From a phage, in assembly GCA_020318295.1 (NCBI GenBank), contig GCA_020318295.1_4859.1: DNA of 37,697 nucleotides. One strand, 5' to 3'. Of this stretch, positions 4,601 through 37,697 are shown piece after piece. A model generated the notes under the pieces. That model was not told the origin of the DNA. It saw only the letters and a program-made list of their open reading frames with translations, and made no database searches. Both the position numbers and the translations under genes were made by a program. Each line of letters starts with the position of its first letter. Within the stretch, counting starts at the first letter, position 1.

Positions 4601-5888
4601 CTTTAACTTCGAGTTTCTTCGGATCGATGGTCAGACCTTCGCCGTACGTCTCTTTAGGATTGTACGGGTTGGGTAAGTTTACGAAACGTTTAGAAGATTC
4701 GTTCAGAAACTGATACGCTTTGGCGGTGACGCGGCCCGCTTCTGCCAGGCGCTCAACTTCCTGTTTAATCACAGCATCGTGTGGGATGGTGCGTTCTACG
4801 ACGATGGTGGTTGGTTTGACATCTTCTTTCGGCGCTTCGATGACCAGATCTTCTTTCTCATCGAACTCATGATCGTTCAATGTATCGTCAACGTTGTCGC
4901 TTTGTGTTGCTTCATCGTCGACGATATCGAGGCTTTCTTCCGGTTTACTGGCAACGGTTTCAACAGCATCGTCGTCCTCTCCCAGATGTACGCGTTCATC
5001 CCCTTCCGGTGTAACGAACTCGTCATCTTCGTAGTCGGTAGACGGCGGTGTGGTCATCACCGTAGTCAGTGTACGGTAGAACATTCTGCCCATCTGCACG
5101 TCAGTCAAACGACCACCGGCAGACTTACGCATTCTTTCAATTACACCCATGTTCATGGATGTAAAACCACCGTTGTGTGTGAAGATAAAGTTCACACGAG
5201 ACAGCTGGTTCATGTCCATACCGTCGAACAGGGTTGCTTGCTGATCGCCGTAAGCCCAACCGAACAGTTCCAGTAACCACAGCAGGTTAAAGTCTTTAAA
5301 GTGTTCCAGTTTGGTTTTAACACGATCGTTATACGTCATTTTAAAACGATCGAAAGAAGGCAGTACGTTACCCAGTTCGATGATGTAGTAGTTCTGACGC
5401 ATGTACTCACGTGAGTCAGTTTTCATCTGGTTAGTTATCAGCAGCTGAATGTTGTGCAGACGTTCGTACCAGGACATCAGAGTATCAGGGTAGAAATAAT
5501 GCGGCAGCATCGGGGTGTAGTTTTCGATGAGCAGCACTTTCGGATCGGAACGTACCACGCCGTCTTCAATCATGCGACGAATACGACGGTTGTTACGATG
5601 GTACTGGAAGATTTGGCGCTCTTGACCAACAACCGGTTTCTTACGCGGGTGGCCAATAATGCCGTCTTCAGGCAGCTGGAAGTGGTGACGAATCATCGCC
5701 GGTTTTTCCAGCTGACCAAAACATGGTGTGGTTAACGGTGGTGCTAAAACCACCTGGTCTAAATCGATGGTGTGGTAGATAGAACCACGTGGGAGCTGGA
5801 GCTTCTCCAGCGGGATAATACGCGGACGACCGAACTCATCGGTCTTGCGCACGGTAAAGCGCTGGTTAAACTGTTTCAGAAAAATCAT
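1683..5888 (-). CDS. multisubunit RNA polymerase beta' subunit, C-terminal portion (1401 aa)
   Basis: N-terminus GRPRIIPLEKLQLPRGSIY resembles E. coli beta' GEPIIVPSQDVVLGLYY just after the catalytic loop; FIFTHNGG...RKSAGGRLTDVQMGR resembles the bridge-helix region (FISTHGARKG...TANSGYLTRRLVDVAQD); C-terminal ARIVGSIMRIGTTNAVGY resembles the beta' C-terminal block NVIVGRLIPAGTGYAY. Contains an acidic insertion (DYEDDEF...DDEATQSDNVDD) at roughly 4800..5050. Confidence 0.6.
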   Translation of the reverse strand: MIFLKQFNQRFTVRKTDEFGRPRIIPLEKLQLPRGSIYHTIDLDQVVLAPPLTTPCFGQLEKPAMIRHHFQLPEDGIIGHPRKKPVVGQERQIFQYHRNNRRIRRMIEDGVVRSDPKVLLIENYTPMLPHYFYPDTLMSWYERLHNIQLLITNQMKTDSREYMRQNYYIIELGNVLPSFDRFKMTYNDRVKTKLEHFKDFNLLWLLELFGWAYGDQQATLFDGMDMNQLSRVNFIFTHNGGFTSMNMGVIERMRKSAGGRLTDVQMGRMFYRTLTTVMTTPPSTDYEDDEFVTPEGDERVHLGEDDDAVETVASKPEESLDIVDDEATQSDNVDDTLNDHEFDEKEDLVIEAPKEDVKPTTIVVERTIPHDAVIKQEVERLAEAGRVTAKAYQFLNESSKRFVNLPNPYNPKETYGEGLTIDPKKLEVKAEPKKIERLVTDEAWAENTTDQIIRQYNQEIFPKDVLGAVASSQRLGLAIHNHTVEKEISVTGNIEHHTLRIQPIGGEPTTVRFSIPALTEDGTWVANGVEYTMRRQRVDLPIRKVSHDTVALTTAYGKNFVRRSDKVVNDYGRWLTNAIITRAVDPKNTEITDAKLANVFDPLSKLPRQYTEVARRVAAFNAIGYQWNFDIKQKAAFFNEGQLADADRVELVPVAKKPRSHVIVGMDKNSQLYRVDKDKTEPLGTLAEVFGVDTSKAPREMTELSLMGKSISLGFVFAYYLGLTGMLKHFGISYEVLSVGQRIDKGQFDSIIRLQDAKIAIVCENDQQRMIVNGLDRYIKHFTTYTESEVDREDIYLNLLRDADGLTPRYIKELKLMRTAFVDDMHARILRKMGEPETFIGLLERSNELLQTDHTLPEINGDEMMFIGNQRISYHIYTAMVRAMRNYNNAPNSNRKFELTQDMVWGAINSDPSVLLAPGANPVQNIKEKDVVTMGGTGGRNRKTMVYSTREFQPSDLGIVSGNTVDNGDVGITAFATNNPRYDTVDGTTFKKDLDKLKPGEALSFIDGLVPDTLMDDAKRQNFVGIQFGSATSCVGATTTPYRTEQEKFVAHRTSVKHARVIDKPGKIVEVLNDHVKIKYDDGEEEAFPLGRWFGPHEGTYYPHTLVTKWKRGDKLPAGAVITYNEQHFEPDIYDPTQVSFKNGILATVALIEGEEVIEDSNAISERFAAKAEADVTKLKEVTMTFTQNLLEMVKEGDHVDVDSILCTFTDNLTGDMSGFSKEAAETLRELSSFAPRSGVRGFIDKIEVVYHGEVEDMTPSLAEMVRKYDRIRRKTALALKRDEPKDGRVNGDFRVEGVPLAYNSLCVRFYITHRVEMAAADKMVIANQLKTTVQEVMYGTNKTEDGQELDIIFGRDSVDARIVGSIMRIGTTNAVGYRGGENIGRILDGEDVPALPAKIN

Positions 5889-5906
5889 ACATGTGCCTTA
5901 TGGGTA

Positions 5907-7520
5907 TCATTTCAACAGCGCAGCAGTCGTTCTTTTAATCACGTTGTTAACCGGATTGATTTTGAAACTGCCGTCTGTTGCAAACCAGTAGTTTTTCGAA
6001 CTGACCCACTTCCGATTTTCCTCGAGCGCTTCGGTTGACATCGGGCAGTTTGCTGAGCCGGTGTCACCATCGTAGTCACCACCCAAGCCCCCTAATCGGG
6101 ATGGGTGCGGTGCCATGGATTCCACAAAGGTTTTCACGGTACGGTCAGGGAAGCTAATTGCACCCTTCTCTTTTAACGTGACCCAATCGTCTTCCAGTTC
6201 ATGCAAATAGAGGGAAGAGGTGGTGGTCTCCAATCTTATGGTCGAGGAGTAAGTCGAACCGCGTCCCGTAACCGGATAACGCGTGATGAACGAGAAGTAG
6301 TCATTCCAAATATCGTAACCTGACAAATAGAGGAGTTCCGCTAAGCTCAGTCCGCGGACAAGCTTACGGTCACGTCCTTCCGGCAGGTCTTCAATATCGT
6401 AAAAGATTTTGAAGCTGCGTTTGTCCTGGTAGATTAATGCCACGTAATGGTCCGGATCAATCATCAGCGGTTTATGTCGAAGCTCGCGCGCTTCCATTCT
6501 GTTGATGAGCGTTTCGATGCCATCGTCGGTAGTGAAAAGGTCATACACCCGCCCGGAGACTTCCAGGAACTCACGCTTGAGTGTTTTGGTGTTAACGCCG
6601 TATAAGTTACCGTCCCCTGCCCGGATGTTACTGAGGTAACGTTCACGGATGTGGTATTGAGCCACAGGCAGTAATGCCTTCAGGGTTTGGTACAAACCGA
6701 TACGGGTATCCGTTGGACGAATCGCATCTTCGCGACCCATGACCTTGGAACCGGTTGAGAATGAAGACAGTACGTTACGCGTACCGTTCATTAACTTACG
6801 TGACGTCACTTTACGACGTGCAAAACCACCTTTACCGTCTTGGATGTTGAAAAAGTACATCCAGATATCATTAAAGGTTTGTTGGAGCTTCCAGCGAACC
6901 GGGTCAGTCAGTTCCGTTCGCGTACTGCGGTCGGGGATTGCACGTGCCAGAGAAATCAGACGGCGGTAGAGTCCGCCAATCTCTTCTTCTTGGTCGCGGC
7001 CATCCTGACGAATGACCAAATCACGTAATCCCGCAGGCAGAACCAGCACATAGCGGCTGAGACTGACCGGACGGAACTTATTGAAGAAATCGACTGTCTC
7101 GTCGCGACGCATCGATTCGTTGCGTCCCGGTGTCAGTTGTTCGTAGTAGCGTAGGAAGAAGTTGAAGCCGGTGTCTGCACCTTTATCACTGGGCAGAGCC
7201 GGCTCGAAGTCTTTTTCTTTCTCATTCCAGATAGCGAATCGCTTCCCGGAACAGATTTCTTCGTACAGCTGTTTCAGCTGGAACAATGCCAAACAAACGG
7301 TCGGTGAAATGATATCCAGTTTGATATCAATGTACGAGAACGTTGAGTCTCGTGCTTCGCTCCCTGTGAGGCCAAAAATTTCGGTTGAATACAGTCCTTC
7401 AGGGTGAAAGTTTTTCGTCAGTCCCTGAAAGGTGTCTGTTGTTGTAACTGGTTTTAAATGCGACACCAGGGACTTGTTGACGTTTAACAAGTAAAAGTCA
7501 ACCCAGTTTAGCTTTCTCAC
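5907..7520 (-). CDS. multisubunit RNA polymerase beta' subunit, N-terminal portion with DxDGD catalytic motif (537 aa)
   Basis: YVLVLPAGLRDLV...DG...GGLYRRLISLA resembles E. coli beta' [20 protein letters not shown]...LYRRVINRN; GKGGFARRKVTSRKLMNGTRNV resembles [28 protein letters not shown] at 6063..6077 sits where NADFDGD does. GTG start with AGGAG 9 nt upstream. Confidence 0.7.
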   Translation of the reverse strand: MRKLNWVDFYLLNVNKSLVSHLKPVTTTDTFQGLTKNFHPEGLYSTEIFGLTGSEARDSTFSYIDIKLDIISPTVCLALFQLKQLYEEICSGKRFAIWNEKEKDFEPALPSDKGADTGFNFFLRYYEQLTPGRNESMRRDETVDFFNKFRPVSLSRYVLVLPAGLRDLVIRQDGRDQEEEIGGLYRRLISLARAIPDRSTRTELTDPVRWKLQQTFNDIWMYFFNIQDGKGGFARRKVTSRKLMNGTRNVLSSFSTGSKVMGREDAIRPTDTRIGLYQTLKALLPVAQYHIRERYLSNIRAGDGNLYGVNTKTLKREFLEVSGRVYDLFTTDDGIETLINRMEARELRHKPLMIDPDHYVALIYQDKRSFKIFYDIEDLPEGRDRKLVRGLSLAELLYLSGYDIWNDYFSFITRYPVTGRGSTYSSTIRLETTTSSLYLHELEDDWVTLKEKGAISFPDRTVKTFVESMAPHPSRLGGLGGDYDGDTGSANCPMSTEALEENRKWVSSKNYWFATDGSFKINPVNNVIKRTTAALLK

Positions 7521-7549: not shown

Positions 7550-10500
7550 ATGGCAAAAAGAGGCAAAGACGGTTTCGATGATATCGATTTAGATAGACTC
7601 GACGACTGGGATGATTTCGGTGAACCACCCCGTCCCAAAGACGAGAAAAAACGAAGCCCGATACTCAGTACCCTGAATGTTGCCAGGAAGTCGGCGTTGT
7701 CAACTATCTGGCCAGAAGGGAAACGTGACCAAGTTATCCTCAAGGGGATGCCTAAGCCGGCAGCTGATGCATACGAGGGCTATCAGTCAGCGGCAGCTGC
7801 AGCAAAGGACATTTACGCCCATACGAAAGGGGAGCTTGAGAAGACCGAGCGCACGCTGAAGATGCAAGCGCGTCAACTCGGTCCGACAATGAAGAAATAC
7901 TTGCCGGATGCAGTTACTAAACGCTTCGACAAGTGGTCAAAATCTGACCAGTTAGATTACCAGAACTACGATCCGAATCAGGCATTGATGGATCGTGAAC
8001 TGGGCGACGTATTCTCAGGTGTGCCAAAGGACGCCGATGAGCAACGTCAGCTGCAGGATCGCATGGTAGAGGACAAGCTCCGTGACAGCATCAAAGAGAT
8101 GCGCGCGGATGCAATGCACCAAACCATGATTGGGATGGCGAAAGATATTAACCTGTTAACCGGGTTAAGCCGTGGGGTATTCTTAAACATCGAGCGTAAG
8201 AAGCTCGAATTGCAATACCGCACCCTGTTCGCCATTCAAGACATCGTGAAGATGAAGCAGTCGGAGTTCGATCGTAACACGCCTGCTTTAGAAGCCATCG
8301 TGAAGAACACGGCACTGCCGGATTACGCGAAGGAAGATTTCTCAGAAGTCCGTTGGGCGAACGTTAAACGCCAGGCTGCGGAATGGATGAACCCGTTGCG
8401 TTATGCTGACGGGTTTATGGACATGATTCGCGAAAATACCAAGAAGAAAATTTCTGGTATATTTGGCGAAGGTCGTGGTTTGTTAGAGTCCGTTCTCGGC
8501 ATGGGTGTTGAAGACGATTTCGGCATGAGCGATAGCTCTTCGTTGACTGCCGAACGTCGCAAAACAAATGCTCGCGATAAAGCAACTGCATGGGGTAGCG
8601 GATTCCTTGCGAAGAAACTACTCGGCCCACAAATCGAGAAACTCCAGAAATGGACTCGTGAGGAGATGGAGAAAAATCCAGAGGTCATGAAACGCCTGCA
8701 GAAGGGCGCGTTCACCTTTGGTAATCTTTCCTCTATCTCGAACTCAGCTATCGCAGGCGAAACGCAAGGACCGTTGGCGGATTTGTTCCGGGTATTGAAT
8801 GAACTCGGTATTGTCCAACCGTTAAACCGCGAGAAAGCTTTTCTTGATGAGCGTAATGGCGAAACGTTAAGCCGTTCGGCGAAGTTTGACCGCAAAGCGT
8901 ATCTTAGCATAGTTGAAGTTATTCCTGCCTGGCTGGCAGAGATTAACAAATCTGTTCGTCGTGGCTATGGCGAACATGCCGACCTGGAATATGACATCAC
9001 TAGCCGTGGTTTCGTAGACCGCAAAGTGGTCGGTAATCGTGTACGAAAAGCGGTTGCAAATGATGAGCAGCGTCTGCGTCTTCAGAATTCCATTAATAGC
9101 ACTGTGGATTTTGTTGACCGCGGCAAAACACTCTCGCAGAAGGATCGTCAGCATCTTGCCGACTATATTGAGTCGCGTGCCTCGCAGGGCCGTGCATTCG
9201 ACGTAGAAGCAATTTTGAAAGACCCGATGCATCTTCATCGGTATATGCCAGGAAACTCTGCAGAACGCATTAAGGAAGCGTTACAGGGGCATTCTGATAG
9301 CCTGGTCGGTGGTAGCAACGAATTAAGTAACGAACTGGCACGCAAAATCTCCACAGTGCAGTCATCTATCACCCAACGTCAGGCAATTATCGACGAGGCG
9401 GTGAATATTTACGGCGAGCGAGCGTTGCGTGATGCGGGTATCTTTAACTACGACGCGAAGAGTGACACCTTCGGCGTGGATAAAGACCTGTCCGATCCCT
9501 ATACCTTGTTTAATGACTTGGCGATGGGTAAGACACGCAGCGGGCGTGCATTGACTCGTGACCAGGAGATTCAACGTAAGCTGCAAAATGGTTCGGCGTT
9601 AGGCGACTATCTGCGCCGAATGAACCAAGGGGCAAGTGGTGGTGCCGATGACACGTCGTTACCGCCGGCTTTACGTGGCGGTGGTAAAGGCCGCGGAATG
9701 TCGCCTCGGCAGCTAGCCGCGGTTCTCTACGGTGAAACCTCGACTAACTTTGTTGAATTGTTGAGTCAACGTAACCGTGGCGAAGAAGCGCCACGGAATA
9801 ACTTTGACGGTATCATCGAAGCGATTCGTGGTAACAACAACAGTGACACTCTCCAGAAAATTCTGGAACACGTCAGAAGTATGGACGAAGAAGGGGTTCT
9901 CCTGGCTTCGTTAGCAGGGGGTGCTGGTTCTGGTGATGAAGAAATGGGTCCGCCTCGCCCTGGCGGTGGTAGCGGTGGCGGTAGACGCCGTCGTATTATC
10001 ATCGGTGAGGATGGGCTTATTCGTCGTTGGGGTGGTGTGTTGTTCGACACCGCAGCAGGAATCGGTGGCTTTGCGAAACGTGGTGTTAAGGGTGCCTGGA
10101 ATAAACTGAACCAGTTCGGTGGCTGGGCACGCGGTAAAGTCGCAGGAATGGGTGGCGGAGAAGGTCCTGGTTTCTTAACCCGGATGCGTGGCCTTATTAG
10201 TGGTAGTGTCCGTGGGGGCTTTGAAGCAGTAAGCTCTTTCGGTAAAGGACTACTGGGTATCCGCGACATTTACGATGACCACGGTAATGTTGTTCTGCAG
10301 GGCGCACGCCTGGAAGCTGGGGAATACTACCAGGTTATTGATGGTAAGATGGTTCAGTTGAAAACACTGGACGACATCAAGCTGGGGAGCGACATTGTTG
10401 ACTCCGCAGGTAATCTGGTATTAGCGGCCGCTGACTTAGCCGCAGCCGGTAAACTCCGCTACTATAAAGGCGGGAAAATCCAAGCGCTGACCCAAGGTCT

Positions 10501-13500
10501 GGCCAGTAAGATTGGTTTAGGCTTTAATAAGGTGGCTAAGCTACCGAAACGGTTCCTGGATTTCCTGTCACCAAAAGCGGGCAGCATCGTTGGTAAGATT
10601 AAGGACTGGCTGAACGAGATTCCGGAAGGCGAAGAAAAGACACGCCTCCAGAAAGCGTTCAATCGCGTAACGAGCTTGCCGGGTAAAGTGCTCGGTTTTG
10701 CGAAACGTGGTGTCGATCGTCTGAAAGACATGATTACCGACAACCCACTGACGCGTTGGTGGAAAGGCCGTAAAGATGGTGGGGGTGGTGGTTTCAGTCT
10801 CTTCTCATCAACCGGCAAGAAAACCAACCACATCCTTATCCGTATCTATAAACTGTTGAACCAACGTTTACCGGGCGATCCGGAAGACGAAAGTTGGACA
10901 GAGGAAATGGAGAAGGGCGTCGGGGGTGGCGGTAGTACGATCGGTCGTGCAGTACGCGGGGCGTATGATCGTGCGAAAGCGTCATTGTCTGAACGTTTTG
11001 GTGGACGTTGGTCAAGAACAAAAGCGTTCTTTGGTCGTGGACGTGACCGCCTGCGTGGTTGGTTCAGTGGTTTCCGAGGCCGGGCTGGGGATATGCTCGA
11101 TGGATATCGTGGAGCACGACACGACATTGCTACACGTTACGAAGTTGAACGTCGGTTGGCTGGACGCGATGACGATGTTGCTGAGTTTTATCGCAGCCAT
11201 TTGAACGCGAAAGGTGGCCTTTCTGGCCGTAAAGTCTACGGCGATGCGAAGGAAGACCTTGAGACCGCCCGTGATGCAGCAGGGAGGGTTATCAACAAAG
11301 GGAAGAATGCCGCCAAGTCAGCAGGTGCAAGGTTATTCGAACGCTTGGACCGAATGATTGGCTTGCAAGAGATGTCGTGGTTTAACACCATGCGCGAATC
11401 AGTATCCCGTGCAGGTGGCGACGATGGCATTATTCGTACCATGTTTGCGAAGTTCGGTAAACGTAACAAGCCGCCTGAAGGTGATGAAAAACGCGACTAC
11501 TTTAACTTCTTCAAACGTTGGCGTGAGAAACGTAAGGAGAAGAAAGAGAAAGCGCAGGGCTCCAAAGGGAAATCTGGCGGTCTGTGGGATATGGTGAAAG
11601 GCTTACCTATCATCGGTCCCATCGTCAGTATCTTGGGAACTGTGGGTAATATACTCGGTTCTATCACGAAATGGGGTGTGTTAAAACCCGTAGGTCTTTT
11701 AGGTAAGGCTGCGTGGAACGTTGGTAAGTTCGCAGTAACCCGTTTGGCGGCACCCGCGGTGTCCGCTGTGGCAACTGCAGCGTCTGCCGTCGTGACAGCA
11801 GTGGGCTGGCCGGCAATTCTTATCGGTGGCGCGATCGCTGCGGCAGGTTACGCCGCGTACAAGATCGCAACGACTACCTATACCCAGTACCTGGATAAGA
11901 TGCGTTTAGCTCAGTACGGTTTCCGTGATTACGATAAGTGGTCGTCGGACGACGGGGCGAAGGCGCGTTACTTAGAAGACGCATTGCGTGAGTATGTGTC
12001 TTACGCGGAAGATGGCCAAGCCAGTCTCCGCGGGCTAAGTGGAAAAGACGTTCAGAAGTTAGCTGAAGGGTTCGGTATCAACGTTGAGGAAAAAGGCGAG
12101 ATGTTGGCCTTCCAAGCGTTTATGCTTCAGCGCTTCATTCCGATTTATCTCCGCTGGATTACGGCACTGAAATCGATGCCGAACAGTATCCAGTTGGCTG
12201 ACGTCGGCGACGCGAAGAAAGTATCGAAAGAGGACATGCAGACACTCTTCAACAAAATGAAGATGACTAAGGATGCAAAAGCGTTCTCTTCGTTAACTGA
12301 CCCACGCAAAGTCAACCAAGGTTTCTTCTCGAAAGCTTGGGACGTTGTAACCTTTACACCGAAGGAGTTTTTGAGCGGTGAAGAGGTTATGGAAGTGCAG
12401 AATGAAGTTGAGCGTGCAATCAAGTTCAGAATGGACGATAAGAAAGCACGTAAGTACGGAATGGCACCGGCTGTAGAGGGGATTAAGTCCGCGGGCGTTG
12501 ATGAAGCTATCAACAAACTTGGACAGTTGGATAACGAACGTAATAAAAATCTGGCGAAGGTAGAGGGTTGGGAAGACGGAACAGAGCAGGTTCAGATTCA
12601 GGTAGACTGGAATGCGGTGCTCGACCAGAAAGACATGAATGCGATGGAGTCGGTACGTTGGAAGACTTATGGTTTTACCACCATCGACAACGCCACACGC
12701 ACGTTGATTACGGTATTCGAGAAAAACGTCATCAAAGACATTGACGTGAAAACCGCAAGCTACAAAGGTGATTGGAAGAAAGCAATCGCCTCAATGGTTC
12801 CAGACGCTATCGGCACACCGAAAGAAGATCGTTTGAAGCGGTGGTTCTTTGACCGTTTCTTACCGGTATTCATGACGTACTTGGTTGGGGTGAAACGCTA
12901 CCTGCCAACAGCTGATCCGCTGAACTTGAAACTGACCGGCGGTTACCTGTACGAAATCAGTTTGATGATGTCAACAGCTTATAGCTTGAAGGGCGGTATA
13001 AGACAGTCGGTGTGGGAAGTGAATATCAACCCATTAGGGGGCGATGCTAACACTAATCCGTTGTCTATCAAAGCCGAGCTGGAAACGCTGAAGCTGTTGT
13101 CAAAAGAAGCTGACCTTGCCGTGCGTAACATGATTAAAGCCATTAAAAATAATGGCAAGCGTGCACGCTGGAAGGATCGTAACAAGAACCGCAGTTCTCT
13201 GGAAGTCACCGGTGAAGATGAAGAAGACTCGAACATCAGTTCGGGAGATTCTTTGTCATCTGACGGTGCTCGCGCCTCAGGCTACATTCCATCGGGCACG
13301 AGTGGCGGTGTGCCGGGTAACTTAGGTCAAGTCGTCGATGCGGTCGGTGGTGTGCGGAACTACGCTGCAATGACCACTGGTTCGTCTTCGATTAACCTGA
13401 GTGATGTGAAAGACGGTGATTATAAGTCACTGGCTGAAAAATACCCGATAGAAATGTTGGGTAGAAAGGGTGCGTTGAACGTTCCGAATATCAAAGCATT

Positions 13501-14671
13501 GATTACCGATGCAGCGAACATGATGGGCGTGCCACCTGCAGTGGCGTTAGCAATGGCTAAGGCGGAGTCCGGATTTAACTACACCGCTAAAAACCCGTAT
13601 GCTTCGGCGTCTGGGTTGTTCCAGTTTGTTAACGGCACGTGGGACGGGATGATGAAGGGGTATTCGCGGAAGTTTGGTATTCCGCGTGTTAACCAGATGG
13701 ACCCGTGGGCGAATGCTATCTTGGGTGTGCAGTTCATTCGTGACAACATCCAACAAGCACAACGTGACCTGGGTGGTAAAGCACCACCTCCAGCCGTGGC
13801 TTATCTGTACCACTTCCTAGGTGCAGGCGGCGGTAAGAAATTCCTGGAAGCGTGGAAGCGTAATCCGAATATGGCGGCATCGAGTGCTCCTGGGATTACA
13901 TCTGCAATACTGAGAGGGAATGCCAACGTCTTCTACAGCAACGGTCGTATACGTAGCGTAGATGGGGTTATTCAGGAACTGAACCGCCGCATGGGTGCAA
14001 TTTCCGCCAACGAAGTCGCCGCCGATCCGAGCAAGACGAAGGATATGGTTGCAGGATTGTCGCCTAATTCACCAACCAACCCGGCAGCAGCAATGGGTGC
14101 ACCGGCCGCTAATGACCCGAGTCTGTCGCCAGCAGATAACCTGCCAGCAGATAATGCTAATCGTCGTGATGACGCATTGACGCAGAAAGGGGCCATGGCG
14201 GCACAAGATGCAATGGCTACCGCCGCAGGTAATGTAGGACCAGCAGCACCTACACCAACCACAGGCGGTACCGGAACATCCGATGCCTCAACAACGGCCG
14301 AAACCGTAGCGTCGCAAGCTGCAGCAGAAGGATTGTCTGCGACGGATGTTGCTAAAGTGAAAGCAGGCGCGGAAGCGCAGGTTAACGCAGCAGCTCGTCC
14401 AGTTGCCGCTCCAACTTCTGATGCTACAGCATCGACGCCAACGCTGAATGGTGACCCGATAGATGTTCAGCAGCTCAAGGTACTGATTCAGTCTCGCGAT
14501 TACTTGAAAGAGATTCGTGATATTTTGAAATCAAATCCAAGAGCGGCAAACGACACACGGGGTGGTAGTATCCAGCAAGCGGCAAATGTGCCTCCTCCTG
14601 GCTCAGCTGCACGTAGGCAGGAAATAACCCAACCGACACCGTCGTTAAACGTAAGTCGGAAAGCAAGCTAA
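7550..14671 (+). CDS. giant virion-associated protein (2373 aa) with C-terminal lytic transglycosylase domain; resembles phiKZ gp181-type proteins
   Basis: Single uninterrupted 7.1 kb ORF. Gly-rich low-complexity tracts at about 9900..11100, a long hydrophobic Gly/Ala-rich segment at about 11590..11870 (GLPIIGPIVSILGTVGNILGS...AILIGGAIAAAGYAAYKI), an SLT-like block near 13.5 kb, and an Ala/Pro/Thr-rich tail at about 14080..14450. Confidence 0.8.
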   Translation: MAKRGKDGFDDIDLDRLDDWDDFGEPPRPKDEKKRSPILSTLNVARKSALSTIWPEGKRDQVILKGMPKPAADAYEGYQSAAAAAKDIYAHTKGELEKTERTLKMQARQLGPTMKKYLPDAVTKRFDKWSKSDQLDYQNYDPNQALMDRELGDVFSGVPKDADEQRQLQDRMVEDKLRDSIKEMRADAMHQTMIGMAKDINLLTGLSRGVFLNIERKKLELQYRTLFAIQDIVKMKQSEFDRNTPALEAIVKNTALPDYAKEDFSEVRWANVKRQAAEWMNPLRYADGFMDMIRENTKKKISGIFGEGRGLLESVLGMGVEDDFGMSDSSSLTAERRKTNARDKATAWGSGFLAKKLLGPQIEKLQKWTREEMEKNPEVMKRLQKGAFTFGNLSSISNSAIAGETQGPLADLFRVLNELGIVQPLNREKAFLDERNGETLSRSAKFDRKAYLSIVEVIPAWLAEINKSVRRGYGEHADLEYDITSRGFVDRKVVGNRVRKAVANDEQRLRLQNSINSTVDFVDRGKTLSQKDRQHLADYIESRASQGRAFDVEAILKDPMHLHRYMPGNSAERIKEALQGHSDSLVGGSNELSNELARKISTVQSSITQRQAIIDEAVNIYGERALRDAGIFNYDAKSDTFGVDKDLSDPYTLFNDLAMGKTRSGRALTRDQEIQRKLQNGSALGDYLRRMNQGASGGADDTSLPPALRGGGKGRGMSPRQLAAVLYGETSTNFVELLSQRNRGEEAPRNNFDGIIEAIRGNNNSDTLQKILEHVRSMDEEGVLLASLAGGAGSGDEEMGPPRPGGGSGGGRRRRIIIGEDGLIRRWGGVLFDTAAGIGGFAKRGVKGAWNKLNQFGGWARGKVAGMGGGEGPGFLTRMRGLISGSVRGGFEAVSSFGKGLLGIRDIYDDHGNVVLQGARLEAGEYYQVIDGKMVQLKTLDDIKLGSDIVDSAGNLVLAAADLAAAGKLRYYKGGKIQALTQGLASKIGLGFNKVAKLPKRFLDFLSPKAGSIVGKIKDWLNEIPEGEEKTRLQKAFNRVTSLPGKVLGFAKRGVDRLKDMITDNPLTRWWKGRKDGGGGGFSLFSSTGKKTNHILIRIYKLLNQRLPGDPEDESWTEEMEKGVGGGGSTIGRAVRGAYDRAKASLSERFGGRWSRTKAFFGRGRDRLRGWFSGFRGRAGDMLDGYRGARHDIATRYEVERRLAGRDDDVAEFYRSHLNAKGGLSGRKVYGDAKEDLETARDAAGRVINKGKNAAKSAGARLFERLDRMIGLQEMSWFNTMRESVSRAGGDDGIIRTMFAKFGKRNKPPEGDEKRDYFNFFKRWREKRKEKKEKAQGSKGKSGGLWDMVKGLPIIGPIVSILGTVGNILGSITKWGVLKPVGLLGKAAWNVGKFAVTRLAAPAVSAVATAASAVVTAVGWPAILIGGAIAAAGYAAYKIATTTYTQYLDKMRLAQYGFRDYDKWSSDDGAKARYLEDALREYVSYAEDGQASLRGLSGKDVQKLAEGFGINVEEKGEMLAFQAFMLQRFIPIYLRWITALKSMPNSIQLADVGDAKKVSKEDMQTLFNKMKMTKDAKAFSSLTDPRKVNQGFFSKAWDVVTFTPKEFLSGEEVMEVQNEVERAIKFRMDDKKARKYGMAPAVEGIKSAGVDEAINKLGQLDNERNKNLAKVEGWEDGTEQVQIQVDWNAVLDQKDMNAMESVRWKTYGFTTIDNATRTLITVFEKNVIKDIDVKTASYKGDWKKAIASMVPDAIGTPKEDRLKRWFFDRFLPVFMTYLVGVKRYLPTADPLNLKLTGGYLYEISLMMSTAYSLKGGIRQSVWEVNINPLGGDANTNPLSIKAELETLKLLSKEADLAVRNMIKAIKNNGKRARWKDRNKNRSSLEVTGEDEEDSNISSGDSLSSDGARASGYIPSGTSGGVPGNLGQVVDAVGGVRNYAAMTTGSSSINLSDVKDGDYKSLAEKYPIEMLGRKGALNVPNIKALITDAANMMGVPPAVALAMAKAESGFNYTAKNPYASASGLFQFVNGTWDGMMKGYSRKFGIPRVNQMDPWANAILGVQFIRDNIQQAQRDLGGKAPPPAVAYLYHFLGAGGGKKFLEAWKRNPNMAASSAPGITSAILRGNANVFYSNGRIRSVDGVIQELNRRMGAISANEVAADPSKTKDMVAGLSPNSPTNPAAAMGAPAANDPSLSPADNLPADNANRRDDALTQKGAMAAQDAMATAAGNVGPAAPTPTTGGTGTSDASTTAETVASQAAAEGLSATDVAKVKAGAEAQVNAAARPVAAPTSDATASTPTLNGDPIDVQQLKVLIQSRDYLKEIRDILKSNPRAANDTRGGSIQQAANVPPPGSAARRQEITQPTPSLNVSRKAS
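13480..13900 (+). other. lytic transglycosylase (SLT family) domain within the giant protein
   Basis: MGVPPAVALAMAKAESGFNYTAKNPYASASGLFQFVNGTWDG...AYLYHFLGAGG: the catalytic E-S dipeptide followed by a GLFQF block, as in family-1 lytic transglycosylases and phage gp16-type virion lysins. Domain boundaries are approximate. Confidence 0.7.
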
Positions 14672-32343: not shown

Positions 32344-33099
32344 ATGAATGTTAATCCACTTGCAGCGTTGTCGGGCTTTGTTGCCAAAGCATCCACGATT
32401 CTGCCTAAAGCCTTTAGCGGCTCTCAACAGGAACTCGCGCTGACCACCTATGACGACATGTCTGATGTGTCCAAGTGGATGCAGCAAGAGAAGTTTTTAA
32501 ACTTTACCGGAATGCTTGTACCCGTACCTCCGGGCTTCAACACGTATGTGATGGACCACATAGAACGGTTGGAATCTGTATGGGCTGTGCTCCAGAAGAT
32601 TCAGGAAGGGGTTTTAAGTCCCATCGACAAACGTTTCGGCGCGATGACACACGACCTGGGTATGCTGACACTGCCTATCGGATTTAAGTTCAAAGACCTG
32701 AACTACCCACTGAAAAACATTAACCCGAAAGACCTGGTTGAGAAACTGGCGAAGTCGTACACCAACAATGTGGTCGACCAGCGTGCGATTGAAAAGACCT
32801 ACCACAGTGCAGGTGAGATTGACGTTGCGTTTAATCGTGCCAAAGCGCTGAACCTGGAAGTGACTAAGAAACTCCAGAAAGGTATTGACCGTACAGTTGA
32901 AAGCATCAACGTCTCTGTAGACATTATCTCTAATTCACAAGTCCATCCTAATGTGGCGGCAGAGTTAGTGAAAATGGCTGACATGGGTGCTGACTGGGTT
33001 GAGCTGTTCGGACTGTTTATGAAACAGATTAATGAACTGACAGAATGCCTGAACGTAACCGGTGATCGCCTCAAGACCCTGAAAGCAAACAAAAAATAA
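32344..33099 (+). CDS. hypothetical protein (251 aa)
   Basis: ORF with GAGG upstream; lone plus-strand gene bounded by a divergent intergenic region and a bidirectional terminator. Confidence 0.55.
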   Translation: MNVNPLAALSGFVAKASTILPKAFSGSQQELALTTYDDMSDVSKWMQQEKFLNFTGMLVPVPPGFNTYVMDHIERLESVWAVLQKIQEGVLSPIDKRFGAMTHDLGMLTLPIGFKFKDLNYPLKNINPKDLVEKLAKSYTNNVVDQRAIEKTYHSAGEIDVAFNRAKALNLEVTKKLQKGIDRTVESINVSVDIISNSQVHPNVAAELVKMADMGADWVELFGLFMKQINELTECLNVTGDRLKTLKANKK

Positions 33100-33110
33100 A
33101 AAGTAAGCAG

Positions 33111-33152
33111 TACCCACTCCCCTTACGGGAGTGGGTAGGCTTTATTTTATTT
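33111..33152. terminator. bidirectional rho-independent terminator between convergent genes
   Basis: Stem TACCCACTCCC / GGGAGTGGGTA with loop CTTAC, followed by GGCTTTATTTTATTT on the plus strand and preceded by an A-run that reads as a T-run on the minus strand. Confidence 0.7.
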
Positions 33153-33161
33153 CGGACCGAT

Positions 33162-33704
33162 TTAGAATTTACTGATAGTAAGTGGCTGCATTGGCTCGAC
33201 CACAATCAGTATTTCTTTCAGACGTGAAACGATATGCTCCCAGACCTGTGCTTCAAGGTGACGTAACATGGTGGTGAACTCACCCATGTACATCTCTTTA
33301 TACTCGTCGCGGTTGAGATGTTCCCACGCTTCTTTCAATGGGCCTGCTTCTGGACCAGACATCTTGATCATCATTTCGATGTCTTTCATCTCATCAAACG
33401 CTTTACCGACTTTATCAATAACCTCATCGGTTTTAAGTTCGAGCGAGAAACGACCCATCTTAGACTGCAGGAAGCCGTCTTCAATGTCTTCATCGTTGTA
33501 TTCAAAACAAGCAATACGTTGCGCGAGTTGATGAACTTCATTTACCGCGATGTTGACGTACGCCGCAGAGATAAGACCAGCGAGGTGCTGACGATCGATA
33601 TTCTTTGGTATCAGATAGTCTTCACACTTACGCTTAAACTCGAACAACGCCGCTGGAAATATTTCGCGAAATTCGTCATCGAGTAAATCAATGAATATTT
33701 TCAT
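33162..33704 (-). CDS. hypothetical protein (180 aa)
   Basis: ORF; ATGA overlap with the upstream gene. Confidence 0.55.
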   Translation of the reverse strand: MKIFIDLLDDEFREIFPAALFEFKRKCEDYLIPKNIDRQHLAGLISAAYVNIAVNEVHQLAQRIACFEYNDEDIEDGFLQSKMGRFSLELKTDEVIDKVGKAFDEMKDIEMMIKMSGPEAGPLKEAWEHLNRDEYKEMYMGEFTTMLRHLEAQVWEHIVSRLKEILIVVEPMQPLTISKF

Positions 33705-34240
33705 TCAGCAGGTTTCCCATATTTCTCGCCGAGATACAGTAGTTCACGACGACAGATAGCCAGCACCTTCATTTCCGCATCACGATACAGCTTGGTGATT
33801 TTGTCAATGATTGGCTGGTCAACGATATCAGACCATGTTACCGTGTCCGTGACGTTCGATGATTGCCCGTTAATGACCACAGCAACATATGTCTCGCCCA
33901 GGTTCTCTTGATGTAACCCCGCCAGTGATTCACCAACCTTATCAAAGGCTTCACTCAATAAGTCGGTGATTTGGTCCGTCCCTTCTACCAGTTCAAAACG
34001 ATGGGGATAGTTCAGAATATTGCGCAGCCGCGTGAACATACGTTCAATAAGCTGATTTACCATATCCCCAGTGTCGCAGATAGCCACATCTACGCCCGAA
34101 CCTATTTCGTCAGACAAACGATTTTCGTGGACGGCCAACGCATCGTGAAGTTCAAATTCCACGTCACGTTTTAATCCTAACAGAATTTCATCTAGCTGAC
34201 GTCTCGACTCCGACAGAGCGAAGTCAATTACGATTTGCAT
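33701..34240 (-). CDS. hypothetical protein (179 aa)
   Basis: ORF with AAGGAG upstream. Confidence 0.55.
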   Translation of the reverse strand: MQIVIDFALSESRRQLDEILLGLKRDVEFELHDALAVHENRLSDEIGSGVDVAICDTGDMVNQLIERMFTRLRNILNYPHRFELVEGTDQITDLLSEAFDKVGESLAGLHQENLGETYVAVVINGQSSNVTDTVTWSDIVDQPIIDKITKLYRDAEMKVLAICRRELLYLGEKYGKPAE

Positions 34241-34250
34241 CTAATGCTCC

Positions 34251-34724
34251 TTAAAAGTTACTTACCTCGGGCTGCGTATACCAGTATCTGCACGCTACGA
34301 GATCCACAACGTTATATTTCAGTTGTCCACCGTGCTGTGACGTGTCTGCCAATTCATGCGCAAGCTTGTACGCTAAGTCTTCACGGTTGTCGAGGATAAG
34401 CAACACAACACGCTGCACCTCATTAAAGATATCCGGTTCACGTAAACAACTGTAGCGCTCGCTAAGATGCTTAATAACGCCTTTATAAACATCTCCTGGT
34501 ACAGCAGTGCCATTTTCTGCTACGTGGAATGAAACAAGCACGATTTTAATTAAAATCTCGACAACCATGGAGTATATCATTCCACGGTTGCCGTTAATTT
34601 CCACACGCTTTAGATACTCTTGCAAGTCCATCAATGACTCGCTATACACCTTTAACATAGCGACCACCTCTAGTTGGTTGCCGGCCACACCCCTGGCGAT
34701 GGGATTGCATTGTATCCACGCCAT
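34251..34724 (-). CDS. hypothetical protein (157 aa; start may be the internal Met near 34658)
   Basis: ORF in operon context. Confidence 0.5.
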   Translation of the reverse strand: MAWIQCNPIARGVAGNQLEVVAMLKVYSESLMDLQEYLKRVEINGNRGMIYSMVVEILIKIVLVSFHVAENGTAVPGDVYKGVIKHLSERYSCLREPDIFNEVQRVVLLILDNREDLAYKLAHELADTSQHGGQLKYNVVDLVACRYWYTQPEVSNF

Positions 34725-35047
34725 TTCTTAATCACGACAAGGTTCGAGCCTGGAAGACCATCTAAATCAAAACCAACAGTAGCAACGACATCAACTTCAG
34801 CATCCAGCGATACCTGATCGCGACCCTGTGTTCTGAAATGCGCAAGAGACGCCAGTTTACCGCCAGTAATCGCAGTATCGCGAATAAGACGTGCCATATT
34901 GCGCATCTCTACTGTCACTTCTCCACGAATAGCGACACTCAGCGTTGCTTTATTTAACCAGGCTTCTTGTCCCGGTTCGACAATATAGAGAATCACACCT
35001 TCTTTGTAATACTGTTTTACCATCGTTTCAAATTCGTCTTGCGTCAT
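34670..35047 (-). CDS. hypothetical protein (125 aa)
   Basis: ORF with AAGGAG upstream. Confidence 0.5.
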   Translation of the reverse strand: MTQDEFETMVKQYYKEGVILYIVEPGQEAWLNKATLSVAIRGEVTVEMRNMARLIRDTAITGGKLASLAHFRTQGRDQVSLDAEVDVVATVGFDLDGLPGSNLVVIKKWRGYNAIPSPGVWPATN

Positions 35048-35060
35048 TTTAAATACTCCT

Positions 35061-35795
35061 TCAGTAGTTTAGTTTCTCAGCGACATCTTTACGGATGCGA
35101 CACATCACCACCATCGCACCATTCGGAATTTGGCTCACGCAGTTATCCGTGTAAAACTTACCTTCACACAGATAAAAGTCCAGACACATGGCATCGGTCA
35201 GTTCGTGCCACAGGGTGCCGAAACCATACTGCCAAGGGCCGGAATGAACGACATCGTAATCGCCATCAGTTATGCCAAATGCGGCAGTAGCGGAAGACCA
35301 CAGTGTTGAGGAGGTGGTATAAGTGTCATACCAGTAACCGAGCAGACGATGGTTACGACGTATCTCAGCTAACCGCTCGTACATTGGGATGAATACATCT
35401 TCCACCTGCGTGACAAAATCAGCCAGCATCAACTTTTCCGTAAACCACTCGATCCACGCAAAGATTTGTTCTTCAACGTCTTGTTGGCTTAACCCCGTGG
35501 CAGTAATGCCTTCTTCGTAGGTGTAACCTTCGTAGACGTCAACAACATTAATCTCTACATGTTCTAGCGTGAACAACCGTTCGGTGTTGATGCAGTCGTA
35601 CATCTCTTGTAACCACGCAGTGAAGACTTCTATACAGACGTTGATGGCTGTGTACTTGAATTCATCGCGCAGTGGATACCACTGTGGGTTATCCTTTAGT
35701 TCGTTCTTCGCGAACGCGGGCCAATGCTTTTCGAACAACGCTTCAAAGAACTGGGGCGTGAGGTTTAAAAGCACTGGCACTTCGACTTTAAGCAT
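35061..35795 (-). CDS. hypothetical protein (244 aa)
   Basis: ORF with AAGGAG upstream; first gene downstream of the second copy of the promoter-like motif. Confidence 0.55.
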   Translation of the reverse strand: MLKVEVPVLLNLTPQFFEALFEKHWPAFAKNELKDNPQWYPLRDEFKYTAINVCIEVFTAWLQEMYDCINTERLFTLEHVEINVVDVYEGYTYEEGITATGLSQQDVEEQIFAWIEWFTEKLMLADFVTQVEDVFIPMYERLAEIRRNHRLLGYWYDTYTTSSTLWSSATAAFGITDGDYDVVHSGPWQYGFGTLWHELTDAMCLDFYLCEGKFYTDNCVSQIPNGAMVVMCRIRKDVAEKLNY

Positions 35796-35828
35796 CGTGA
35801 ATAAATTCTCCTTAAGGTTACGTCCCTG

Positions 35829-35858
35829 TAGATAATATCTATCTCAGATTACTTTAAG
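35829..35858 (-). promoter_or_regulatory. putative phage promoter element, copy 2 (minus-strand read CTTAAAGTAATCTGAGATAGATATTATCTA)
   Basis: Same 12-nt core and the same 33-nt spacing to the ATG at 35795 as copy 1. Confidence 0.5.
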
Positions 35859-36589
35859 AGATGCAAGAAGCGTGCTGCCTGTTCTGTAAAGTGAAAATAC
35901 TCGATGGTATCAGGTTCGTCCGAGTGAATGTCATCCGGGTCCAGCAGGTAGCCCGAGATATCATCCGTTAAAACCCAAGCGTCTCCCTGCAGGAAAATAC
36001 CCATCGGTTTTTCTACCACAGGCATCACCAAGTCCGAATAAGAGTTACCTTCTGCTACCCTTACAATGTCTTCACACGGGTCAACAATATACAGGTTGCA
36101 GAGACTACGATCTTTAAGACTGCGATGAAACATCGCACGATCGTACCAAATAACCTGAGAACAATTATCTTCGTCACCCGCCACATCGACCAACTCTGTC
36201 CAGAAACGATGTAAGAACCAGTTCAACGCACCGGTTATTAGCTCGTTCGGTTTCAGCATTCTAACGTGTTCGTCGTACAACTCTTCCATTGTCCAGATTC
36301 GACATTGCTCACGATCGATTGTCGGTAGCGGAGGTATTTGCGGCGGGACTTGTTTAGGCATCGGTTCATCACATCTTGCATTGTAACGCGCAATTGTTTC
36401 AGTAACCAGCTCTGCCACAACATCACAAGCCGCTTCAAACCCCCACTTGTACAACACGTCGTAATCTTCCATGGGCGCAGCACCGAACTCACGGTTCGTT
36501 GCCATCCACGACATCCATCCGTATTGCTCCACACAGTTAATCAGACTTTGTGTGTGGAGCGTGAGCGATTCACTCACGACTCGCAACAT
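35849..36589 (-). CDS. hypothetical protein (about 246 aa; ORF track extends to 36649)
   Basis: I prefer the internal ATG at 36589, with AGAGG 7 nt upstream, which sits 1 nt from the upstream stop; the track's start would overlap the upstream gene by 59 nt. Confidence 0.5.
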   Translation of the reverse strand: MLRVVSESLTLHTQSLINCVEQYGWMSWMATNREFGAAPMEDYDVLYKWGFEAACDVVAELVTETIARYNARCDEPMPKQVPPQIPPLPTIDREQCRIWTMEELYDEHVRMLKPNELITGALNWFLHRFWTELVDVAGDEDNCSQVIWYDRAMFHRSLKDRSLCNLYIVDPCEDIVRVAEGNSYSDLVMPVVEKPMGIFLQGDAWVLTDDISGYLLDPDDIHSDEPDTIEYFHFTEQAARFLHLLK

Positions 36590-36590
36590 G

Positions 36591-37697
36591 TTACACCTCT
36601 TCTTCTCGCAGTATGCGACGGTTTGCGTAATACGCACACCACAACCCATGATACTCTTTACCGATATAGATTAAGAAGTAACGGATGTAGTATTTTTCAG
36701 GACGACACACCGCGATGTAATAACGGCCTTCCGGTTCTTTAATACGGTTGATTTCCGTACGCGATGGAATATCGATGCCGCGAGTCAAAATAACCGAGAC
36801 AGGTCGTTTACCCATCGGAAAGTCAATCTTTAACGTTATTGACTTATCGACGCTACGGTAGTATTCCTTGACAGGTTTACCTTTGTCGTCGAATAGCAAG
36901 TCGGTAATATCGTTTAAGACATAACCCTTTTCCTGATGCAGAACATCACGCAACGTTGTAGCGAGTTCGTCACGAATATCCAGCGCACGGTACGACAATA
37001 AGGGCGGGCGAAGCATTCTGGAGATGGCCAGGTCTTCAAAGAACCAGACGTTGGAATCTTCTCCACTGAAATGCATCTTGTCTGCTGGTAATCCATCACC
37101 TGCCACGTCAACGAACTTCTTACGTTTAACGAACTCATTGTTAACAACGCCGATTGGATCATACTGCCGCATCTTCGGTGTATCTTTCCATGCCAGGGCG
37201 GCGTGATTGTTTACAATCGTGTAGATGTTATCCCACGGTTGTTTAGTGAACATTACGGAAAAGTGTGCATCAGGAATCATTTTCCCAATAAACACCAAGT
37301 CGTCCTTGTTCTTTGCATGGTTGCCACCAAACATGTAATAGAAAGTTTCATCTTTCACTTTTACAGTAGGATGGTCCTCGTTCACCAACGGATAGCAATA
37401 TTTAACCGTACAAATCGGCGGATATGCCGCAAGGTTCATCCCAGCGGCGATGGGCTCTGGTTCCGCGGATGCAGGCAAATCATCCTTCGACCAGTACGGC
37501 TGATATGGAACACCGTCGTTGGTCGCGGTGATAGCTGAACCTTTTCTAGCCAATTCGTCCGCCCGGTCATTGCCGTAGTGTCCGGAGTGTCCTTTGATTT
37601 TGATAACCTTAACACCCCGTCCTTCTTTTTTCATCTGCTGTTTGATTTCCCAGATACGAACAATAAGTTCTTTGTTCGCCAGCGGAGTACCGTCAGC
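36591..37697 (-). CDS. protein with an RNase H-like motif followed by an unassigned C-terminal extension of about 310 aa (partial; start beyond window end)
   Basis: The minus frame stays open to the window edge. The translated edge reads ...NKELIVRIWEIKQQMKKEGRGVKVIKIKGHSGHYGNDRADELARKG, resembling the RNase HI C-terminal block (E. coli ...[25 protein letters not shown]); the following ~310 aa have no motif I recognise. Confidence 0.55.
   Translation of the reverse strand, partial: ADGTPLANKELIVRIWEIKQQMKKEGRGVKVIKIKGHSGHYGNDRADELARKGSAITATNDGVPYQPYWSKDDLPASAEPEPIAAGMNLAAYPPICTVKYCYPLVNEDHPTVKVKDETFYYMFGGNHAKNKDDLVFIGKMIPDAHFSVMFTKQPWDNIYTIVNNHAALAWKDTPKMRQYDPIGVVNNEFVKRKKFVDVAGDGLPADKMHFSGEDSNVWFFEDLAISRMLRPPLLSYRALDIRDELATTLRDVLHQEKGYVLNDITDLLFDDKGKPVKEYYRSVDKSITLKIDFPMGKRPVSVILTRGIDIPSRTEINRIKEPEGRYYIAVCRPEKYYIRYFLIYIGKEYHGLWCAYYANRRILREEEV

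Follow-up and report, generated by a model that had tools for sequence, protein, structure and literature searches.

A truncated jumbo-phage gene encodes an RNase HI joined to a probable clamp-like domain and is an orthologue of phiKZ gp155 and Goslar Rhc

The analyzed stretch of phage DNA (the window, 37,697 nt) ends inside a gene, and the question raised by this locus was what protein the truncated gene encodes. In the translation of the window, a minus-strand frame is open from 37697 to the TAA at 36591-36593 and comprises 368 codons. The frame at 36591-37697 contains ...IKGHSGHYGNDRADELARKG... (given in the frame also as ...VIKIKGHSGHYGNDRADELARKGS...), after which about 310 more residues follow up to the stop. 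The preliminary description of this DNA had seen here the C-terminal signature of RNase HI in a gene truncated by the window and had proposed an RNase H fused to a novel domain, unlike the T4-type RNase H/FEN. The truncation was confirmed, the window edge falling at codon 137 of 504. The features discussed below are as follows:

36591..37697, minus strand: 3' 1107 nt of the RNase H-clamp gene, codons 137-504 and the TAA (from the open frame, the translation, and the identity to SPN3US and EC001)
37536..37697, minus strand: C-terminal third of the RNase HI domain, residues 137-190, with helix D, strand 5, and the start of helix E (from Pfam, alignment, and PDB matches)
37401..37520, minus strand: interdomain linker, residues ~196-235, acidic and poorly conserved (from low pLDDT and the gapped family alignment)
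36594..37400, minus strand: probable sliding-clamp-like (PCNA-fold) domain, residues ~236-504, lying entirely inside the window
35849..36589, minus strand: downstream gene, SPN3US gp208 orthologue, 246 aa (from sequence and the SPN3US annotation)

The DNA was compared with known phages. Window bases 35800-37697, covering the RNase H-clamp gene and the next gene, showed 98.9% nucleotide identity to Escherichia phage EC001 and 98.3% to Salmonella phage SPN3US. Altogether, 34 phage genomes matched these bases at 95-99%, and the near-identical phages belong to the genus Seoulvirus of the family Chimalliviridae. In their genomes, the gene is a 1515-nt CDS labelled "putative ribonuclease H" or "ribonuclease" (gp207 in SPN3US). 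The part of the gene at 36591-37697 (minus strand) accounts for residues 137-504 of the 504-aa product; codons 1-136 are situated outside the window, and the missing 136 N-terminal residues were taken from the near-identical SPN3US and EC001 (98-99% nucleotide identity). With E 1.2e-189, the full-length SPN3US protein was matched over its whole length by PHROG 3265 'ribonuclease'. The SPN3US essential-gene paper makes no mention of gp207. The promoter and terminator scan of 33000-37697 gave fewer promoter-like sites than were found in shuffles and no convincing terminator near the RNase H-clamp gene. By correspondence with SPN3US, the large genes at 1683-7520 (minus strand) and 7550-14671 (plus strand) are labelled 'RNA polymerase beta subunit' and 2373-aa 'tail fiber protein', and thymidylate synthase and MazG-like genes are present elsewhere in the window; all of these genes are unrelated to the RNase H-clamp finding.

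The nuclease signature was examined at the level of the fragment and of the full protein. The window fragment alone matched Pfam RNase_H (PF00075) with E 3.9e-7 and a score of 30.8 bits, above the gathering score of 25.8, its residues 10-54 aligning to profile positions 95-140 of 141. A match of this strength to the end of the profile marks the C-terminal part of a genuine RNase HI domain rather than a random motif, so that the proposed signature, followed by ~310 residues in the same open frame, was upheld. Two catalytic residues are encoded within the window, H173 (37587-37589) and D183 (37557-37559), and the part outside it, as read from the near-identical genomes, supplies D12 (VIYTDGS), E91 (GELIAF), and D114 (IYVDASY). 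All five were invariant in the alignment with E. coli RNase HI, phiKZ gp155 (the D102 of which aligns with D114 of the full-length form of the window protein), and the Goslar protein. We take them to be the equivalents of E. coli D10, E48, D70, H124, and D134. The full protein matched Pfam RNase_H with E 8e-22, and in the PDB the structures of E. coli and human RNase H1 were matched with E 1e-11 to 1e-13. In the full-length AF2 model (pLDDT 86.5), the elements follow the RNase HI order b1-b2-b3-aA-b4-aB-aD-b5-aE, with a family-specific insertion of ~40 residues between strands 2 and 3. The point on which the preliminary description saw its proposal as vulnerable, DEDD residues missing upstream or no RNase H fold, was checked, and both the residues and the predicted fold were present. 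Judged by its residues and its model, the N-terminal domain, situated mostly outside the window, makes up a whole RNase HI whose D-E-D-H-D centre is intact, and it is fused to a further domain as had been proposed. RNase_H was also the sole Pfam family reported at E up to 1, with no PIN-like 5'-3' exonuclease/FEN domain found, in agreement with the suggested dissimilarity to the T4-type enzyme.

Conservation of the active site was followed among 134 diverse representatives of the family, with identity to SPN3US down to 17%. D12 was kept in 129 of them, E91 in 132, D114 in 131, and H173 and D183 in 129 each; 126 retained all five residues. The eight members that have lost catalytic residues (e.g., P0059 and P0068), together with the fact that the window displays just the last third of the domain, could speak for an isolated chance match or a decayed remnant in a protein that is no RNase H. 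The probability of such a reading is negligible, and it was rejected: the Pfam score of the fragment alone, the five catalytic residues of the full protein, and the confident element order in the AF2 model are all contrary to it, and RNase H activity in vitro has been reported for the phiKZ orthologue.

The region behind the nuclease begins with a flexible linker, where pLDDT fell below 50 (residues 1-20 in the C-terminal model, residues 209-217 in the full-length one) and which is variable and gapped in the family alignment. Residues 196-504 gave no match in Pfam or NCBIfam, and it is because the domain is absent from both collections that no motif had been recognized in it. The C-terminal family profile had 0 matches among all PDB sequences at E up to 10, hence no sequence likeness to known clamps was seen in that search. 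The most conserved positions of the domain are T401 (134 of 134, in the DIT motif), R449 (131 of 134, in IDxPxR), P367, G274, R373, and R475. In the models, R373 and R449 lie at or near the N-termini of two of four helices, which would fit phosphate contacts.

Three homologue searches gave the same architecture, which indicates that the C-terminal domain is essentially always fused behind RNase H. The word-indexed search returned 38 proteins which, frameshifted SPFM calls aside, are ~500 aa long and carry RNase_H. With tblastn, 222 places in 216 phage records were found; among 50 of these records, all genomes were of 210-310 kb and belonged mostly to Erwinia, Pseudomonas, Salmonella, Vibrio, Aeromonas, and Ralstonia phages. 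The ratio of records to places and the Seoulvirus identity point to one copy per genome of nucleus-forming (Chimalliviridae) jumbo phages. In the exhaustive profile search of 1.84 billion representatives, 544 proteins passed a cut-off of E 1e-3; of the 150 highest-scoring ones, nearly all had a length of 450-560 aa and carried the domain at ~200-500. Short matches from this search (98-365 aa) were considered as stand-alone clamp domains and rejected, as most start in the middle of the domain or of the RNase H and resemble truncated gene calls.

Several members of the family depart from the common form. P0059 combines a Macro domain and the clamp domain with an RNase H-like region in which catalytic residues have been lost; in P0068 and P0157, no RNase_H match was detected, and P0171 carries an I-TevI-like DNA-binding N-terminal extension. 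The eight of 134 representatives lacking at least one catalytic residue suggest that the clamp domain may persist without nuclease activity. In several assemblies of Salmonella phage SPFM (P0028, P0030, P0031, P0033, P0037, P0038; H36, H37), the gene is split into several 'hypothetical protein' calls, with the match in 5 pieces; these look like assembly frameshift errors rather than biology.

Structure prediction had been advised in the preliminary description for the C-terminal region. The AF2 model of the 309 in-window C-terminal residues, built with 21 aligned sequences, had pLDDT 85.6 and pTM 0.83 and displayed a probable clamp-like fold. In the AF2 models, an N-terminal hairpin is followed by four helix-then-three-strand units (helices H292-305, H329-335, H368-389, and H449-455), which is consistent with the clamp pattern. 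In the Foldseek search of the PDB, archaeal PCNA was the top match with E 1.3e-3 and probability 0.87, the TM score being just 0.28-0.33. In BFVD, jumbo-phage "ribonuclease H" models came first (TM 0.64-0.91), and clamp-sized viral proteins, giant-virus PCNAs, and phage beta clamps occupied the next ranks. Two stand-alone, clamp-sized viral proteins in BFVD, I1VX43 (233 aa, E 5e-10) and G4KKB4 (247 aa, E 2.4e-4), were closer to the domain than PCNA and may be its unfused relatives. The comparison by hhalign of the N-terminal and C-terminal halves of the domain in the 134-sequence alignment gave no signal of a clamp-type internal duplication (probability 0.3%). Because the scores are modest and support at the sequence level is absent, we grade the PCNA-like fold of the modelled domain as probable, that is, consistent with the data and not proven. 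The fold search led to the clamp assignment independently of the Rhc preprint discussed below.

Ring-forming clamps (9-1-1 subunits, PCNA, and gp45) head the structural matches, and one could imagine a canonical closed ring, a trimer or dimer round DNA, loaded by a clamp loader in the manner of T4 gp45 or PCNA, with the RNase H riding on it. We consider this arrangement very improbable. Non-ring processivity factors of the same fold (KSHV PF-8, HCMV UL44, EBV BMRF1, and the HSV processivity factor) were also among the structural matches, and no clamp or RFC-like loader has been described for the phiKZ group, to which Iyer et al. (2021) attributed an RNase H1 and neither a classical sliding clamp nor a primase.

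To which known proteins does this two-domain protein correspond? In BLASTP, SPN3US gp207 (residues 5-493) aligned with phiKZ155 (residues 3-475) at 26% identity (E 4e-38), and the C-terminal domain alone gave E 2e-13; phiKZ155, like SPN3US gp207, matched PHROG 3265 end to end. Goslar HOV27_gp190, which we infer to be Goslar Rhc, aligned with residues 76-501 of SPN3US gp207 at 27% identity (E 8e-38), and with the C-terminal domain alone at 25% identity over 98% of its length. The C-terminal domain is homologous to its phiKZ155 and Goslar counterparts and, in the model, structured and clamp-like. By sequence relationship, the window gene is orthologous to phiKZ gp155/Nlp2 and Goslar Rhc and encodes the SPN3US-type version of an already known protein from a recently characterized family. 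The word 'novel' in the preliminary description could not be retained: the architecture was published in 2025 (PMC12571901), a preprint of October 2026 (PMC13648698) gives the clamp-derived nature of the domain, and the gene is annotated in dozens of genomes.

The literature on these orthologues bears on function. Gerovac et al. (2025; Nature, PMC12571901) described the two-domain architecture of phiKZ155, counted its gene among the core genes of nucleus-forming phages, and found the protein to be active as an RNase H in vitro. Its knock-down stopped genome amplification and nuclear maturation while nuclear transcription went on, and the D102N variant had no RNase H activity in vitro and still complemented (PMC12571901). 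Also known as Nlp2, phiKZ gp155 enters the phage nucleus by Imp1/PicA-dependent import. The Goslar protein was called Rhc, for RNase H-clamp, in a preprint of 2 October 2026 (PMC13648698; bioRxiv 10.64898/2026.10.01.755736). According to this preprint, Rhc is the essential third subunit of a split DNAPN-DNAPC-Rhc polymerase and binds DNAPC, and its C-terminal domain is sliding-clamp-derived and DNA-binding. RNase H catalysis is dispensable in phiKZ and required in Goslar. Knowledge of DNAPC binding, nuclear localization, and the essential role in genome amplification comes from Goslar and phiKZ/PhiPA3.

We therefore favour, with a probability of about 0.8, the reading in which the orthologue of phiKZ gp155/Nlp2 and Goslar Rhc consists of an RNase HI and a PCNA-like clamp domain and acts as an accessory subunit of the nuclear polymerase with a tethered nuclease. 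By extension from the orthologue literature, the protein would be imported into the phage nucleus, where the clamp-derived domain would bind both DNA and the split phage DNA polymerase, the latter through its C-terminal half; such binding would make it the accessory or processivity subunit otherwise missing in these phages. The tethered RNase HI would remove RNA primers and resolve RNA:DNA hybrids (R-loops) at the replisome, and loss of the protein would lead to arrest at a small nascent nucleus with no genome amplification.

The same literature offers another interpretation, of an ordinary primer-removing RNase HI with a C-terminal domain that is mainly a targeting or docking module (an Imp1/PicA cargo signal or a scaffold), the clamp fold being reused without clamp-like function. 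The phiKZ Nlp2 (gp155)-EcoRI fusion was carried into the phage nucleus, with escape mutants mapping to imp1, phiKZ155 formed a PicA-like punctum at the nuclear periphery under some conditions (PMC12571901), and the clamp similarity scores are modest. We nevertheless judge it improbable, as the Goslar work reports DNA binding by the domain and a physical interaction with DNAPC (PMC13648698), and the knock-down specifically blocks genome amplification with nuclear transcription continuing. The other imported cargoes, Nlp1, 3, and 4, are without this domain, which argues that it is no general import tag. Targeting and the polymerase-accessory role are compatible and not mutually exclusive.

The neighbouring genes were also analyzed. 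The gp208 orthologue has its ATG 1 nt beyond the TAA of the RNase H-clamp gene, whose last codons include a GAGG motif; this spacing and motif indicate that the two genes are probably translationally coupled. The gp208 orthologue belongs to PHROG 9472 (E 3.8e-113; function listed as unknown) and had no Pfam match. Compared with the gp208 orthologue, the genes that follow phiKZ155 and Goslar gp190 are shorter, and phiKZ154 is in a different PHROG. On the other side, just beyond 37697 and upstream of the RNase H-clamp gene, SPN3US has gp206 (L001:2874-3593), a stand-alone DEDD 3'-5' exonuclease gene (Pfam Rv2179c-like, E 1.2e-8; PHROG 255, E 8e-53), the stop codon of which overlaps the Rhc start codon by 1 nt in SPN3US-type genomes. 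This adjacency is absent in phiKZ and Goslar. Separately, phiKZ156 (L003:10185-10598), a small gene located upstream of phiKZ155, is weakly related to the likewise upstream SPN3US gp205 (L001:2307-2786) and matched phrog_8165 with E 2e-6, which hints at a conserved pair of a small gene and the RNase H-clamp gene, broken in SPN3US by the exonuclease gene.

According to Iyer et al. (2021), the divergent split polymerase of the phiKZ group has no fused exonuclease, and this, taken with the adjacency, suggests gp206 as a possible proofreader in the complex that contains Rhc. One may speculate about a four-part replicase of the SPN3US type, comprising two polymerase halves, Rhc, and the translationally coupled gp206 proofreader, in which the clamp domain would be a non-ring, UL42-like processivity and docking platform recruiting the exonuclease. 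We regard this model as rather unlikely. If true, the family members without RNase H catalysis or with a Macro domain would show that the clamp platform, and not the nuclease, is the indispensable core.

The phiKZ-like nucleus-forming phages have been thought to have no sliding clamp or primase, and processive replication by their split polymerase was an open question, part of which the RNase H-clamp protein appears to answer. The value of the present analysis lies in annotation: SPN3US gp207, a "putative ribonuclease H", becomes an Rhc/phiKZ155 orthologue, and its "unknown" part of 270 residues probably a clamp-derived domain, so far modelled by no domain database. No new question is opened beyond the papers of 2025-2026.

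Among known systems, phiKZ gp155/Nlp2 (and PhiPA3 gp176) has in common with the window protein the RNase HI insertion and the C-terminal DIT and IDIPSR motifs, whereas it is only 482 aa long, with a shorter linker, and its essential function is reported to be independent of RNase H catalysis. Goslar Rhc resembles it in the two-domain architecture and length (504 vs. 508 aa), both phages being Chimalliviridae of enterobacteria; however, the proteins are only ~27% identical, and Goslar has no adjoining DEDD exonuclease gene. With E. coli RNase HI (PF00075), the phage domain shares the D-E-D-H-D residues, the Trp-rich helix B/D region, and the GH.GH..N..AD motif, but the cellular RNase HI is a stand-alone enzyme of 155 aa, whereas the phage protein has the ~40-residue insertion between strands 2 and 3 and a fused C-terminal region of 300 aa. 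The T4 RNase H, of the FEN/5'-3' exonuclease family, presumably has a common task in RNA primer removal, although its fold and family are unrelated to those of the window protein. PCNA, 9-1-1, T4 gp45, and herpesvirus UL42-UL44-PF-8 are linked with the C-terminal domain as its consistent best structural matches and, in the AF2 models, by the four helix-plus-sheet units, and by analogy a polymerase accessory role would be common to PCNA-type processivity factors and the phage clamp-like domain. In contrast to this likeness, sequence similarity to PCNA-type clamps is undetectable, the phage domain has an extra N-terminal hairpin, and TM values of ~0.3 indicate strong divergence. Finally, RNase HII and FEN1 are recruited by archaeal PCNA without a covalent link (3p83 and 1rxm were among the structural matches), whereas in the phage protein the nuclease is fused to the clamp-like domain.
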